Source: a virus
DNA length: 64,000 nt
IMG/VR virus record: IMGVR_UViG_3300023243_000009
Location: 74,668-138,667 of that record
Direction: 5' to 3' (one strand)
Part shown: positions 11,714-38,233 of the stretch, one piece after another
How the letters are laid out: every line of letters starts with the position of its first letter
How positions within the stretch are numbered: the stretch's first letter is position 1
Made by a program: the position numbers and the translations under genes
The notes under the pieces: model-generated
What the model saw: the letters and a program-made list of their open reading frames with translations, nothing else
Told to the model about the DNA's origin: nothing
Databases searched by the model: none

Positions 11714-12411
11714 GATTTTAAATATTTAAATTTACTATTCTCGTCTTTCAACATAATATACATTTTCCTTTTATGTATTCCAAATTTTTCCATACATTTT
11801 TTAACTGAGGGGTATATTTCTCCAGTTTCTATATTTTTAATATATTTACCTGTTTTTGGTCCTGCTCCTAATTTTAATTTTCCTTTACCCCCGGCACCAG
11901 GTTTAGGTTTTCCTCTTTGCTTCCAACAGGGTTTACCTTTTCTTTTACTAGGTATTCCCTTTTTTCCTAAACTTATATTCTTTTTATGTTCCTTTGTTTT
12001 AGGTTTTCCGAGCAATGCCTTACTTATTTTGGGTTTTTTAAGACCTTGAAGGGCTTCACTAACTAGAGGGTATGTTTTACCAGTTCGAGATTTGGAGATT
12101 TGCTTCCCTCTATTTAAATACTTTTGTGTTTTCGTAGGACCTCCGTCGCTCCCATAACTTTTATTAGTTAAATTATAAAAAAGAGGGTTATCCTTGGTAT
12201 TATAATATTCTAACCAATAAACCTCTTTAATCTTTAAATCCTCAATAGATAAGCAAGTTTCAATTGTTTTTTTGATGAAATTATTTTTACCATACTTTTG
12301 AATATCTTCTTTTAAAAGAACCCCCCCACCTAAATAGTAGGGGGAGTTATTTCTATCTTTACCTATATATTTCTTACCATTTACCAGATTAGTTGTTTCG
12401 TATATAATCAT
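11707..12411 (-). mobile_element. Free-standing GIY-YIG homing endonuclease with basic NUMOD3-like repeats
   Basis: IYETTNLVNGKKYIG...LG; K-rich HKKNISLGKKG repeats. Confidence 0.85.
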
Positions 12412-12476
12412 AATTTTTGTTATACATATATGAAACCCTAAGGAGAGTAATAAAAGTATACTAAGGGTTTAATTTA

Positions 12477-33376: not shown

Positions 33377-33577
33377 TTATTTATCTTTATTATTATTCAT
33401 ACCGAAATAAGTACCCACTATGGCTACTAATCCGGTAATAGTTACTTGTAAAAGGTGTATTATATTTTCGTTTATGGGTCTACTATCTTCCATGGCTATA
33501 TGGAAATCTCCTACTACTATAATTAATAGTAATAACATTATGCCCGTAACTAATATCAATACAACTCTTTCTTTCAT
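33377..33577 (-). CDS. Small two-TM membrane protein
   Basis: Two hydrophobic helices. Confidence 0.6.
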   Translation of the reverse strand: MKERVVLILVTGIMLLLLIIVVGDFHIAMEDSRPINENIIHLLQVTITGLVAIVGTYFGMNNNKDK

Positions 33578-33586
33578 TTTAGTAAT

Positions 33587-33841
33587 TTATTCTTTCTTAC
33601 CAAATATTTTACCTGCTTCCGCTATCCCAAAAGAACCTAGAGTTATGATTACAAATGAATTGTAAATAAGTTCGTTTATTACTAAGTCTTTTCCAAAATA
33701 ACCCGTGATAATATCTACAAAGGCAAATATTACCATTACAGTGAAAGATAAGAAACCAACCACTGATTTCTCGTTAATATCGTTTTCGTCTTTAAAAATG
33801 TCTTTAAAAGCCATCCATTTATTTTTTATAAAGTTTAACAT
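33587..33841 (-). CDS. Small two-TM membrane protein
   Basis: Two hydrophobic helices; ATATTTATA motif upstream. Confidence 0.6.
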   Translation of the reverse strand: MLNFIKNKWMAFKDIFKDENDINEKSVVGFLSFTVMVIFAFVDIITGYFGKDLVINELIYNSFVIITLGSFGIAEAGKIFGKKE

Positions 33842-33915
33842 GGTATAACTGTTTTAAATTAACAACTCGATTTTATTATAAATATAACAAATAATTTAAA
33901 TATTAAATTTCCCTC

Positions 33916-33949
33916 AAAAAAAAATACCCCTAATTACTTAGAGGTATTT
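33916..33949 (-). terminator. Rho-independent terminator after nrdA-C
   Basis: AAATACCTCTAA GTAA TTAGGGGTATTT TTTTT. Confidence 0.75.
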
Positions 33950-33996
33950 AATTTTTTTGTTTAAATTTTTTCACTGAAAGTGTTTAAAAACACATC

Positions 33997-35010
33997 TTAT
34001 CCTTCACAACTCACACAAAGAGCTTGTCGGGAGCCTAAGTCACCTTTGATAACTGAATCTGTTCTTAAATAGTAAAGTGTTTTAATGCCTAATTTCCAAC
34101 TCTCTAAGTGGACTTGATTAATCCATTTAGGTGAATCATTTACATCAAAACTTAAATTTAGAGATTGAGTTTGATCAATATATCTTTGTCTAATCGCTGC
34201 TTGACGTACTAATTCTAATTGATTAATTTCAGGAAAGGTTAAGAATAATTCTTTTTCATCAGGAGATAGGACATTATCAGGTAATCCTACTACAGACCCA
34301 TTATCTCTTAACATTTGGTCCCAATATTCTTCTTGGTTTTCACCTTTACTTTCCAATAATACTTCTAATACTTTATTTTTTCTAATAAAAGTACCTTTAG
34401 CACCATTAAAGGTATAGATATTAGCAGGAAGTGGTTCAATACCTGCAGAGATACCACCGGTTATTACAGAATTAGATACTGTAGGGGCAATTGCCAACAG
34501 ATGTGTATTTCTCATGCCCGTACCCTTACACCATAATGGTTCTCCATATTCTACAGCCAGGTCCCGGGATGCTCTTTCCGCTTTGATTCTAATATCGCTA
34601 AAAATATTATGAGTGTGGGCGGTGGATGCTATTGAATTGAAGGGTAATCCTTTTTGTTGCAAAAACGTATGCCACCCCATTACACCCAAACCTAATGCTC
34701 TACCTTTTCGGGCATGGGCATTCGTCCTAGTTAATGAATCTATACCATTAGATTTTTCTATAAATTCTTGCATTACACCATCCAAAAACCAGGTAGACAT
34801 TTCCACAGTATCTGTGTCTTTCCATTCTTCGTATTTTGCTAAATTTAAAGATGATAAACAACAAATAAAAGAATGTTCTTCATCTGTAAATAAGGTAATT
34901 TCAGAACAGTTATGAACTACAGCACCATTAGCATAGAAATTTTTATTGTCCTGTACCGTTATATCATATACCGGTTTTTTATTTGATAATTTCGAAATTT
35001 TTAATCCCAT
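33997..35010 (-). CDS. nrdA: Split-intein C-part (34 aa) fused to the C-terminal half of class Ia RNR alpha
   Basis: VYDITVQDNKNFYANGAVVHN/C intein end; CSEI, LLAIAPTVSNS, SAGIEP, DQTQSLNL, TLYY, CVSCEG. Confidence 0.93.
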   Translation of the reverse strand: MGLKISKLSNKKPVYDITVQDNKNFYANGAVVHNCSEITLFTDEEHSFICCLSSLNLAKYEEWKDTDTVEMSTWFLDGVMQEFIEKSNGIDSLTRTNAHARKGRALGLGVMGWHTFLQQKGLPFNSIASTAHTHNIFSDIRIKAERASRDLAVEYGEPLWCKGTGMRNTHLLAIAPTVSNSVITGGISAGIEPLPANIYTFNGAKGTFIRKNKVLEVLLESKGENQEEYWDQMLRDNGSVVGLPDNVLSPDEKELFLTFPEINQLELVRQAAIRQRYIDQTQSLNLSFDVNDSPKWINQVHLESWKLGIKTLYYLRTDSVIKGDLGSRQALCVSCEG

Positions 35011-35021
35011 TTTTTTAATTT

Positions 35022-35666
35022 TTATATTTTATATTTCCATTTATACCCATATATTGTGGGTCTTTTTCCTTTGGCACATTCCCCAATAGCGGCTCCTGTT
35101 TTTTTATTTAAAGAATGAGCCGCCTTAATTATAGATTCCCATTCTTTTATAAAATTTAATTCTAAATCATATTGTAATATAGGTTTATTATTTTTACCTA
35201 AATTATTTAATCTTGCTTTTTCTCTAGACTCTGGGGATTGGGTTTTCCCTTTCATTGGGGATATTCTACCTTTATGACCCTTAGATTTACCCTTATGGGC
35301 AATTCTTAAATTTTCACAATGCCATTTTGGTTTTTTTCTACCATATGGGTAACCAACTCCCTTTCTGCTTTTATTGTAAAATAATTCGCTTTCAAAAGCA
35401 TTATACTGTCCTATGTAATATTCCTCCATTTCTTTCATTACTTTAGAATTAAGGACATTCTCTAATATTTCTCTTTTAAAATTATCTACACCATATTTTT
35501 TTAAAGCTAACTTTAAATAAGTTCCACTCCCTAAGTATCCATCATTTAAATCTTTACAAGTATGGGAACCTATATATTTTTTCTCATTTACTAAATTAGT
35601 TGTTATATAAACTATGAATTTAGGAGTTGGCTTTTCTTTCGTGATACTTTCTTTTAACATTTTCAT
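35022..35666 (-). mobile_element. GIY-YIG homing endonuclease (NUMOD3/NUMOD1) between the nrdA halves
   Basis: VYITTNLVNEKKYIG..H, YLGSG, GYKWKYK. Confidence 0.88.
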
Positions 35667-35763
35667 CTACTTTTGTTTTATTTTTCCAATAATAAGTTTT
35701 ACTATATTCAAGTTGTTTTTGAACACGTTCATCCTCGGTTTGATATTTTTTTATACGTCCCAT
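35620..35763 (-). CDS. Small basic ORF overlapping the endonuclease start (47 aa, not in ORF track)
   Basis: Manual translation MGRIKKYQTEDERVQKQLEYSKTYYWKNKTKVDENVKRKYHERKANS; ATATTTATA 8 nt upstream. Confidence 0.5.
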   Translation of the reverse strand: MGRIKKYQTEDERVQKQLEYSKTYYWKNKTKVDENVKRKYHERKANS

Positions 35764-35797
35764 TATCGTTTATAAATATATAGATCTAAGAAAAAGT

Positions 35798-36127
35798 CTA
35801 AGAAAATTTTAATTGTTTTTTTAAGTTTTTTAATTCATTTTTGTATAACTTTTTAAAAGTTGGAGTGGTCGATATAAACTCATTTTTATCCGTTAGAATA
35901 TTATACTCTATTTCCCCAACAATCTGATCATCAGATACATCTAGAAACCAAACTTTCTGCCATTCCTTTTGTATAAAAATCAATAAATCTTTTTTATTAT
36001 CAAACATACAAAAATAATCCCCTACCTCCAAATTTCTAGTAGATTGATTTTTAGACAACCCCAAAAACATACCTTGAGAAGTTAATATTTTTTCTGTATG
36101 ATGGTTTTTAGTAAATAAGTTCATCAT
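35798..36127 (-). CDS. Hypothetical protein within the nrdA gap
   Basis: 109-aa ORF overlapping the intein-N stop. Confidence 0.45.
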   Translation of the reverse strand: MMNLFTKNHHTEKILTSQGMFLGLSKNQSTRNLEVGDYFCMFDNKKDLLIFIQKEWQKVWFLDVSDDQIVGEIEYNILTDKNEFISTTPTFKKLYKNELKNLKKQLKFS

Positions 36128-37226
36128 CTTCTATTAAATTTTGAGCCTCAATCCAACCTCTATTTTTAGTTAATATTTTATGTTCTGGAGTGCATTGTAT
36201 TTTAAATCCCGTTACTTCATCCTCAATCTCTAATAATTCAGCTTCAGGGTTGGTTACTCCATAATTGGTAATAAGTTTATATTCCTTTTCCAAAGTCTCA
36301 AGATTATAACTTAAAACATAAACTTCAGAATGGGTTTGAAGTAAAAACTCAAGGTCTTGAATTTCTATTTCTTGTTTTTTATCTCCTATTTTAATGTTAA
36401 TTTTAGTATCCCCAGTAACACATATATTGGTCATTGTTACTTCTAGATTATTTAGCATGTAAGCCATTGGATTTTGTTTATTTACATTATCTTTGTACAT
36501 AATGTAAGGTTCACCTGTTTCCATTCTTGATTTTAAGACTTTAGCCCAAGTATTTAAAGCTTCAGAATCCCGTGTTTCTAATCTACGCATAAAATGATCA
36601 TCTACAACAACACATTGGTGTAAATTTAAACATTGTCTGTTTGGGTCTCCTTTTGGTCTTCTAATTTCTAAAAATTCATTAATATCCTCGTGATTGATGT
36701 CTAAATTAACTGAAGCTGCTCCTCTTCTAACATTGCCCTGATTTGTAGCTATAATAGATGAATCGAATATTTTAGCCCAAGGTACAACCCCTTCAGATTT
36801 CCCATTTCCCGAGATTTCAGTACCGCGTGGTCTGATGCGAGATAAGCCAATACCTACCCCACCACCGGAGGCGGTTAATTTCATTAGTTCTGCGTTTGTT
36901 AAACCTATTCCACGTATAGAATCGGGTGTATCTATACCAAAACATGAAATTGGTAACCCACGGCTTGTTCCCATATTTGATAAAACGGGGGATGCCAGGC
37001 CTAACCAACCATTCCACATTATTTTAAAGAATTTGGATGCTAATTCTGGTTTTTTTAACCTAAAAGCGGAGGCATTTGCTACTCTTTTATATGCTGTTCT
37101 TACTGTTTCTCCAGGTAGTAAGTAACCCTTGCTGATTGTTGCTAATGAGATTTCATCCATGTATTCAGGGTAATCTTTACCTGCAATCCAATTACTATAA
37201 TCTGCTATTAGTGAATTATTGTCCAT
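36108..37226 (-). CDS. nrdA: N-terminal half of class Ia RNR alpha fused to a split-intein N-part (104 aa)
   Basis: ASPVLSN, PISCF, GGGVG, RRGAASV, TGEPY; then TNI/CVTGDT...CTPEHKILT intein blocks A and B. Confidence 0.93.
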   Translation of the reverse strand: MDNNSLIADYSNWIAGKDYPEYMDEISLATISKGYLLPGETVRTAYKRVANASAFRLKKPELASKFFKIMWNGWLGLASPVLSNMGTSRGLPISCFGIDTPDSIRGIGLTNAELMKLTASGGGVGIGLSRIRPRGTEISGNGKSEGVVPWAKIFDSSIIATNQGNVRRGAASVNLDINHEDINEFLEIRRPKGDPNRQCLNLHQCVVVDDHFMRRLETRDSEALNTWAKVLKSRMETGEPYIMYKDNVNKQNPMAYMLNNLEVTMTNICVTGDTKINIKIGDKKQEIEIQDLEFLLQTHSEVYVLSYNLETLEKEYKLITNYGVTNPEAELLEIEDEVTGFKIQCTPEHKILTKNRGWIEAQNLIEDDELIY

Positions 37227-37243
37227 TTTTTTGTTTTAGTTTA

Positions 37244-38233
37244 TTAAAATAAGTCGTTTACATCCCAATTCTGTACTCCTTTTGAATAATTAGTTACCCT
37301 TACGGCGAAGAAATCGGAGTGCTGTTTTCCAGCAGATAAACTATCAAACCATTTCATTCTTTTAATAGAAGCTGCATCTATACCATTTACAATAGAATCA
37401 TATCCTAAATCTTGCATTTTAGTATTAACTCTATATTTGATAAAAGATACTAAATCGTATTTTGAGCATCCCTCTAAATCTCCCATTGCATATACTTTGT
37501 CAATGAAGCCTAATTCAAGTTTTAAAGATAATTTAGCTGCTTCTTCAATTTCAATTCTTAATTCAGGGGTATTTAGGTCAGGGTTTTCTACCATTAATTG
37601 TCTAAATAACCAACATCCTGCTTCTGAGTGTAATGATTCATCTCTGATGCTCCATTCTACAATTTGTCCTACTCCTTTTAATTTATTTTGTAATTTAAAA
37701 GATAATAAAATAGCAAAGGATGAAAATAAATTAACACCCTCGGTAAATGCAGAGAAGATTGCTAAGGATTTTGCTCGGGCAGACCAATCTGGTTCCCCAT
37801 TATGTGAATCTCTCACATCCATTAAAGCTTGAATTTTTGCCATTGTAGCTTCATCTTCTAAAAATTCAGAAAAATTATCTAAACCTAATTCTTCATTTAA
37901 TAGAGAATAGGCTTCAGCATGTATAGTTTCAAATGCCCCGAATGTAACCGCCATTTTAATAATCTCGGGTTTTCTGAACCAAGAGGTAACTAAATTGGTC
38001 CAATAATCATTTACTACAGTTTCAGTTTGTGCAAATCCTTTTAGGATTGAACCTACAATATTTTTTTCATTTACTGTTAAATTTTGTTTCCAATCATTTA
38101 CATCTGACATCATGGGAACTTCTGTGTGGAGCCAATGTGCTTGGTGTTGTTTTAACCAATAATCGTGGGCTTCAGGGTATTCGAATGGCTTGTAAACTAT
38201 TCTTTCTTCTTTAATGTCTCTTTTTTTACTCAT
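37244..38233 (-). CDS. nrdB: Class I RNR beta subunit
   Basis: ETIHAEAY, TEGVNLFSSF, IRDESLH, DFF. Confidence 0.95.
   Translation of the reverse strand: MSKKRDIKEERIVYKPFEYPEAHDYWLKQHQAHWLHTEVPMMSDVNDWKQNLTVNEKNIVGSILKGFAQTETVVNDYWTNLVTSWFRKPEIIKMAVTFGAFETIHAEAYSLLNEELGLDNFSEFLEDEATMAKIQALMDVRDSHNGEPDWSARAKSLAIFSAFTEGVNLFSSFAILLSFKLQNKLKGVGQIVEWSIRDESLHSEAGCWLFRQLMVENPDLNTPELRIEIEEAAKLSLKLELGFIDKVYAMGDLEGCSKYDLVSFIKYRVNTKMQDLGYDSIVNGIDAASIKRMKWFDSLSAGKQHSDFFAVRVTNYSKGVQNWDVNDLF

Follow-up and report, generated by a model that had tools for sequence, protein, structure and literature searches.

Can a phage still make an active ribonucleotide reductase (RNR) when nrdA, the gene for its alpha chain, is broken into two separate open reading frames (ORFs) directly ahead of the codon for the catalytic cysteine? 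This question is raised by a locus in a 64,000-nt stretch of viral DNA (hereafter the window), which corresponds to positions 74,668 to 138,667 of IMG/VR virus record IMGVR_UViG_3300023243_000009 (138,667 bp, estimated completeness 85%). The locus, whose DNA was found in runs from 24 salt-lake metagenome studies, consists of five collinear ORFs on the minus strand, i.e., nrdA-N, ORF109, ORF47, a GIY-YIG endonuclease gene and nrdA-C, with an intein N-fragment (IntN) at the end of nrdA-N and an intein C-fragment (IntC) at the start of nrdA-C (Table 1). We find it very probable that these two fragments are a functional split intein which rebuilds NrdA by trans-splicing at the catalytic Cys, that the GIY-YIG enzyme provides mobility, and that the unit running from IntN through ORF109 to IntC is a cassette exchanged between phages.

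A preliminary description, made from the sequence alone, had reported a 104-aa intein N-part with the motifs CVTGDT and TPEH at the end of nrdA-N, and a 34-aa C-part (ending in VVHN and followed by CSEI) at the start of a separate ORF approx. 1.1 kb downstream. Coordinates and motifs were correct for both parts, each of which matches a different portion of the Pfam family Intein_splicing, and the gap from the IntN stop to the start codon of IntC measures 1,097 nt. IntN runs from CVTGDT through CTPEH to EDDELIY. All residues of a class 1 intein (HINT) are present, i.e., C1 in CVTGDT, the TPEH of block B, the Asp of block F (VYDITV), the VVHN of block G and the +1 Cys, and these splicing residues are kept in all 11 aligned loci (block B reads THEH in one of them, L019). 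Net charge is -12 for IntN and +3 for IntC. Comparison with solved structures matched IntN to the NrdJ-1 intein (8ubs, E = 1.4e-12; residues 22-103 to 22-105), while IntC gave weak PDB matches to the C-termini of the DnaX, gp41-1 and DnaB inteins. IntN and IntC are also approx. 50% and 64% identical, respectively, to the parts of the NrdA-2 intein, as counted by eye on the printed sequence and not computed; the printed NrdA-2 parts have 106 and 33-34 aa, as compared to 104 and 34 aa here, and the split point is shared with NrdA-2 as well as with NrdJ-1. The window intein appears to be a diverged homologue of these two. The preliminary description had suggested a new orthogonal pair; at such similarity, orthogonality to NrdA-2 and NrdJ-1 should not be assumed, and towards NrdA-2 it seems doubtful.

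The position of the interruption was assessed against intact relatives of the enzyme. The Pfam family Ribonuc_red_lgC is split between the two ORFs, its positions 2-129 (the first quarter) being found in nrdA-N and positions 375-523 in nrdA-C. The closest cultured relative by DNA, Flavobacterium phage vB_FspM_immuto, carries an uninterrupted nrdA (569 aa) within the same gene order as seen here (helicase, nrdB, nrdA), and when aligned to immuto NrdA the window exteins meet exactly at TNI/CSEI, with no residues lost or duplicated. Across this junction immuto reads ...VTMTNICSEIALHTDEEHSF, while the window reads ...VTMTNI, then the intein, then CSEITLFTDEEHSF, for a junction pattern of ...VTMTNI/CSEIxLxTDEEHSF. 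A solved alpha chain, 6dqw, also matches the window NrdA (E = 2.4e-87), CSEI being aligned to CSEI. As the exteins align gaplessly to immuto NrdA at TNI/CSEI, the +1 Cys is the Cys of the N-x-C-x-E motif; the earlier proposal that it is the thiyl cysteine of the enzyme is supported by both alignments.

According to the mechanism that we propose, the RNR alpha chain of this uncultured salt-lake phage would be made as two polypeptides, NrdA(1-268)-IntN and IntC-NrdA(269-571), from one operon comprising nrdB, nrdA-N, ORF109, ORF47, the GIY-YIG gene, nrdA-C and a terminator. The acidic IntN and the basic IntC would associate to form a class 1 HINT domain, and trans-splicing via C1, T-x-x-H, the block F Asp, the terminal His-Asn and the +1 Cys would create the TNI-CSEI peptide bond and leave the +1 Cys free to act as the thiyl-radical cysteine. 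Since this Cys would be freed only by splicing, the unspliced protein should be catalytically dead. The free-standing GIY-YIG enzyme, whose activity and target are predicted, would be the homing engine, and the unit IntN-ORF109-(cargo/endonuclease)-IntC would act as a cassette exchanged among related phages.

Related loci were collected from 17 IMG/VR contigs found in a scan with IntN and were mapped by tblastn and ORF listing (individual loci are given here by L numbers). IntN and IntC of these loci are 78-83% and 76-82% identical, respectively, to those of the window, and nrdB copies with 54-59% identity lie upstream of the split nrdA. In a collection of 5.8 billion proteins, dozens of NrdA-N proteins of approx. 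369 aa end at the same intein point; relatives that are contiguous are fewer and less closely related (two proteins with 37-39% identity, one of which has an HNH domain).

Among 11 aligned loci, mean identity was 88.6% for IntN and 90.9% for IntC, as compared to 80.4% for the N-extein and 79.5% for the C-extein; between the window and the other loci, the intein halves showed approx. 80% and 81% identity and the exteins 65% and 60%. Nei-Gojobori estimates for the non-window pairs gave a nonsynonymous divergence (dN) of 0.054, a synonymous divergence (dS) of 0.57 and a dN/dS of 0.094 for the intein, against 0.124, 1.17 and 0.106, respectively, for the exteins. Purifying selection acts as strongly on the intein as on the enzyme, and the intein has about half the synonymous divergence. 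Maximum likelihood (ML) trees of the two parts conflict: the intein topology is rejected by the extein alignment (approximately unbiased [AU] test, 8e-38), as is the extein topology by the intein alignment (AU 2e-5). Taken together, these data indicate that the intein-bearing cassette moved between phage lineages more recently than the lineages diverged and that the intein is functionally constrained; both observations fit splicing being essential for active RNR, and homing.

Other explanations for this arrangement have to be weighed against trans-splicing. The two NrdA pieces might assemble non-covalently, in the manner of Aeh1 with its mobE, so that the intein halves would be mere interaction tags and no ligation would occur. 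Aeh1 sets a precedent with a functional unspliced split NrdA (as described in PMC3045599 and Dassa 2009), and charge-complementary intein halves would also suit simple association. However, the intein stands directly before the catalytic thiyl Cys and, if unexcised, would leave 138 foreign residues in the active-site finger loop; the splicing residues (C1, T-x-x-H, block F Asp, H-N and +1 C) are all conserved, with a dN/dS of approx. 0.09, and association alone needs no such thing; and the homologous NrdA-2 and NrdJ-1 inteins do splice. Assembly without ligation is, on this evidence, improbable. Still less credit is due to the idea of a decaying pseudogene, i.e., an nrdA wrecked by insertion of a mobile element. 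This has been proposed for Campylobacter phage CPt10 (L021), in which the equivalent nrdA is annotated as "disrupted" by two coding sequences or as a pseudogene, and Dwivedi 2013 discusses degeneration and treats the CPt10 locus as a degenerating gene. In the loci studied here, on the other hand, 17 loci have intact reading frames for both exteins and both intein halves, purifying selection on these is strong (dN/dS approx. 0.1), NrdA retains its catalytic motifs and the C-terminal CxxC tail, and nrdB still adjoins the split nrdA. The preliminary description had itself named a route to refutation, namely that the gap could be an assembly artefact or a self-splicing RNA intron whose removal would restore a contiguous cis-intein, in which case the split would be unreal at the protein level. 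The IntN stop, the full gap and the IntC start are all bridged, with 0 differences and without any alternative joint, by Logan contigs from other salt-lake samples (four runs, one of them from 2021, none being flagged as the source), and the same split is found in the 17 IMG/VR contigs as well as in one further metagenome contig. A cmscan of positions 33500-37800 against Rfam families only detected no group I or group II intron at E <= 1, the sole match being a chance Phe_leader; moreover, the three ORFs in the gap are conserved at the protein level, ORF109 running over the IntN stop, and the intein is divided at the same point as NrdJ-1 and NrdA-2. An assembly artefact or RNA intron is effectively excluded by these observations, and we attach next to no probability to it.

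Several points nevertheless count against a mobile, trans-splicing split intein. Either intein half alone scores under the Pfam gathering cut-off for Intein_splicing (27.3 and 26.9 bits against 35.8), as is expected for half-domains, and the Pfam GIY-YIG match of the endonuclease is marginal (22.0 against 22.6 bits). Splicing itself is what we infer from conserved motifs and homology. With regard to cassette movement, the extein dS exceeds 1 and so approaches saturation, the intein alignment has a short length of 414 nt, and the topology tests set each data set's own ML tree against that of the other, a design that favours rejection.

The GIY-YIG gene that the preliminary description had placed between the intein halves was confirmed by PHROGs, which assigned the whole 214-aa protein to a homing endonuclease family (phrog_314, E = 3e-34). 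In Pfam, in addition to GIY-YIG, SegE_GIY-YIG (22.8 bits, cut-off 25), NUMOD1 (20.4 bits, cut-off 22.8) and NUMOD3 (15.3 bits, cut-off 20.4) were matched, and blastn showed likeness of the gene to segB/segD of the T4 type. The protein follows the plan of a GIY-YIG homing endonuclease, with an N-terminal GIY-YIG domain and a C-terminal DNA-binding region of the NUMOD type. A regulatory hairpin and late-promoter element, as seen by Dassa et al. upstream of gap endonucleases, were sought; positions 35640-35810 fold no better than shuffled sequences (z = -1.56). A second GIY-YIG endonuclease-like gene is present elsewhere in the window, where it adjoins a 7-deazaguanine gene cluster; it lies within a 253-aa open frame and shows 38% identity to residues 16-119 of the gap endonuclease.

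The preliminary description had also counted one or two extra ORFs in the gap; these are ORF109 and ORF47, and they are not filler, ORF109 being a conserved and selected part of the cassette and ORF47 a conserved small frame linked to the endonuclease. ORF47 starts 34 nt past ORF109 and overlaps the start of the endonuclease gene by 47 nt in another frame. By tblastn, it is 70-80% identical wherever the 5' end of the endonuclease gene is present, including beside the different GIY-YIG gene of L015. Its variation is biased towards the third codon position (10/9/17), and the ratio of synonymous to nonsynonymous changes is 95:104, the best of the three frames (41:191 and 44:177 for the others). 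Many clusters of similar proteins with 45-53 aa are found in the ESM Atlas. ORF47 probably encodes a genuine small protein or else serves as a leader ORF in endonuclease expression.

The start of ORF109 overlaps the stop of nrdA-N by 20 nt, which suggests translational coupling, and the overlap recurs in relatives except L013 and L019, where a second endonuclease is inserted. ORF109 was found in 17/17 of the related IMG/VR loci and, in a scan, was absent from the rest of IMG/VR. Its 131 close homologues are all unnamed and without a Pfam domain, and when 1.84 billion representatives were searched exhaustively with a profile, five matches only were obtained. No match to ORF109 or ORF47 was obtained by tblastn against 50,697 cultured phage records, and a search of the ESM Atlas with ORF109 yielded nothing usable; the first gap ORF of CPt10, considered as a homologue of ORF109, was ruled out (E = 0.85). 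The dN/dS of ORF109 is 0.27 (dS 0.31), i.e., selection is purifying and looser than on the intein. In topology tests the intein tree was not rejected by the ORF109 alignment (AU 0.07), whereas the extein tree was (AU 3e-5), so that ORF109 belongs to the cassette.

A distant match connects ORF109 with P0175, a protein of 470 aa in which residues 354-459 align to all of ORF109 (hmmsearch E = 6.6e-4; hhalign 95.5%, E = 1.5e-8); tblastn in a small local database backs this match (E = 2e-9 to 1e-6). The core of P0175 is PD-(D/E)xK-like (TPDF...YIELKG), with weak matches to Bax1 (6p66, E = 0.01), phrog_190 and phrog_945, and a NUMOD3-like stretch is visible by eye. The gene for P0175 is located in L040, another fractured nrdA with the order nrdB, NrdA-N+IntN, P0175 and IntC+NrdA-C, the IntN of which is 46% identical to that of the window. 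The last 14 nt of the gene overlap the start of IntC, and the C-terminal 105 aa of its product are the part homologous to ORF109. P0175 may represent an undescribed type of gap endonuclease. IMG/VR scans for P0175 and for P0172 and P0173, which are distant ORF109 homologues as well, gave no matches, and no trace of the nuclease part of P0175 was found in the window gap. These alignments indicate that ORF109 is homologous to the C-terminal domain of a putative nuclease encoded in the gap of a distantly related locus with an intein of this family. Most simply, ORF109 would be what is left of an earlier endonuclease, kept as a stand-alone protein, although fusion rather than loss may also have led to the present state. 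We tentatively put forward, as a possibility on the less likely side, that ORF109 is a third selected component of the cassette which may descend from the C-terminal domain of a PD-(D/E)xK-type gap endonuclease and may have been kept when the nuclease itself disappeared and the GIY-YIG gene moved in. Candidate roles are binding of the nrdA homing site, for targeting or for protection from cleavage, or chaperoning of the IntN-tagged NrdA fragment; ORF109 may serve any of these.

An AlphaFold (AF2) model of ORF109 built from a diversified alignment (predicted local distance difference test [pLDDT] 92.1, predicted template modeling score [pTM] 0.85) predicts with confidence an antiparallel sheet of six strands and, after it, a long C-terminal helix. 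No fold match was found for this model with Foldseek against PDB and BFVD (E > 0.1) or with VIA-align against 48,161 chains (best Z 5.7), and an earlier model (pLDDT 62.6) likewise gave no convincing match (best VIA Z 6.1, Foldseek E > 0.1).

When the gaps of related loci were compared, no locus spanning the gap lacked IntN, ORF109 or IntC; the endonuclease, by contrast, is variable. The endonuclease gene is full length in L009, L012, L014 and L016-18, is reduced to its last 66 or 98 codons in L004/5/8 and L010, and is absent from L006/7 and L011; L015 has a different GIY-YIG gene, and L013 and L019 have two endonucleases. This pattern is the expected cycle of invasion, decay, loss and re-invasion inside a fixed split. 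In L013 and L019, the second endonuclease is a different GIY-YIG/NUMOD protein (206 aa) encoded between IntN and ORF109, and its insertion replaces the usual IntN/ORF109 overlap and alters the N-terminus of ORF109. In many relatives the stretch from ORF109 to the endonuclease also contains cargo ORFs, variable and 60-324 aa long, that overlap the ORF109 stop and have only their N-terminus in common (MKKSELKQIIKEE...); none is present in the window. Three cargo ORFs contain a motif of the YHFT/YHRT type, and in Pfam the cargo ORFs matched only DUF6576, in the L014 protein. Because variable cargo ORFs occupy it in related phages, the gap looks like a landing pad for accessory genes.

Table 1. 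Features of the fractured nrdA locus and of the loci compared with it (positions are those of the window unless a locus is named)
Feature	Position	Strand	Evidence or remark
nrdB (RNR small subunit)	37244..38233	-	329-aa ORF directly upstream, same operon
nrdA-N + IntN, complete ORF	36108..37226	-	372 aa; extein C-end ...VTMTNI, then intein CVTGDT
NrdA N-extein, 268 aa, ends ...VTMTNI	36423..37226	-	Pfam Ribonuc_red_lgN; Ribonuc_red_lgC positions 2-129; collinear with immuto NrdA
Intein N-fragment, 104 aa + stop	36108..36422	-	Pfam Intein_splicing 4-93 of 155; NrdJ-1 8ubs match
ORF109	35798..36127	-	Conserved gap protein, no named homologue
ORF47, Lys/Arg/Glu-rich	35620..35763	-	Conserved frame with third-position bias
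Free-standing GIY-YIG homing endonuclease with NUMOD motifs, 214 aa	35022..35666	-	phrog_314; sub-threshold Pfam matches
IntC + nrdA-C, complete ORF	33997..35010	-	337 aa; IntC ...VVHN, then CSEI
Intein C-fragment, 34 aa	34909..35010	-	Pfam Intein_splicing 125-155 of 155; weak PDB matches
NrdA C-extein, 303 aa + stop	33997..34908	-	CSEI +1 Cys start, C-terminal CVSCEG; Pfam Ribonuc_red_lgC 375-523; PDB 6dqw
Terminator-like hairpin after nrdA-C	33922..33949	-	12-bp stem + T-run; consensus scan only
Second GIY-YIG endonuclease-like gene	12109..12414 (record 86776-87081)	-	Adjoins 7-deazaguanine gene cluster
Second gap endonuclease, GIY-YIG/NUMOD, 206 aa	L013 2691-3311; L019 5354-5974		Between IntN and ORF109
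Cargo ORFs	L006 5615-6163; L010 5631-6086; L011 5615-6286; L013 3628-4455; L014 2624-3322; L016 884-1858		Between ORF109 and endonuclease
Putative PD-(D/E)xK nuclease (P0175), 473 aa	L040 2410-3831 (metagenome contig Ga0180429_10011471)		Sole gap gene; no Pfam family

The fractured-gene/split-intein architecture has been known since 2009 and the present locus adds one member, in agreement with the likeness drawn in the preliminary description. Dassa et al. 2009 (PMC2677866) describe seven fractured NrdA loci from GOS, NrdA-1 to NrdA-7, with the same insertion site, gap endonucleases that are GIY-YIG or Vsr-like, and an N-intein that is negative and a C-intein that is positive in NrdA-2. Pinto et al. 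2020 (PMC7090010) report both cis- and trans-splicing for NrdA-2, which has the junction SNL/CNE, as well as its orthogonality within the tested set. The GOS loci and above all NrdA-2 share with the window a class I RNR alpha host, an insertion directly N-terminal to the thiyl Cys (SNL/CNE as compared to TNI/CSE), a gap endonuclease, GIY-YIG or other, encoded by a free-standing gene and, in the case of NrdA-2, a split at approx. 105 + 34 aa, an acidic IntN, a basic IntC and a phage origin. The window differs in coming from a Flavobacterium-phage-like salt-lake phage with 30% GC rather than from a cyanophage-like marine one, in the 11-nt spacer that stands in place of a coding overlap between endonuclease and IntC, and in the conserved 109-aa gene and 47-aa ORF added to its gap, no mention of which was seen in the sections of Dassa et al. 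consulted. The NrdJ-1 split intein (PDB 8ubs, 9omb), the closest solved structure to IntN, shares with the window the fold class, the split point and an RNR host; its host is, however, a class II NrdJ.

Among cultured phages, Yersinia phage vB_YenM_TG1 and CPt10 have the same arrangement of NrdA-N+IntN, gap gene(s) and IntC+NrdA-C on one strand, and their IntN is 32-42% identical to that of the window; unlike in the window, their NrdA has an ATP-cone and their gap genes are unrelated. In TG1 (L022, NC_028820.1 137532-141179), the locus encodes NrdA-N+IntN (532 aa), a "homing endonuclease" (316 aa), for which no Pfam match was found, and IntC+NrdA-C (354 aa). The TG1 and CPt10 records annotate separate genes or a pseudogene, not split inteins. 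In Aeh1 (Crona 2011, PMC3045599; Friedrich 2007), nrdA is likewise found as two genes of one operon, split by the free-standing homing endonuclease gene mobE, but an intein is lacking, the two pieces associate non-covalently through short tails, and the endonuclease belongs to the HNH type.

With regard to expression, a consensus scan of the window locus gave Sigma-70-like sites at chance level only. The best solved relatives of the window NrdA are the short alpha chains 6dqw (585 aa) and 6dqx (574 aa) and, like these, the window NrdA is without an ATP-cone. We take 6dqw and 6dqx to be RNRs of class Id, from Flavobacterium johnsoniae and Actinobacillus ureae; should this be true, the window enzyme would be a split-intein-bearing class Id-like RNR.

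Overall, the locus provides one more natural NrdA-type pair in a split-intein family already used in protein engineering. The clade to which it belongs forms a clean comparative series of a fractured gene, with 17 or more loci in which selection, cassette movement, the endonuclease cycle and the landing-pad gap can be followed. ORF109, which is always present and is kin to the gap-nuclease domain of a distant fractured nrdA, provides a lead, open to testing, on the further parts that a split-intein cassette requires or takes along, and the value for follow-up work lies in ORF109 and in this comparative series on cassette mobility and endonuclease turnover.

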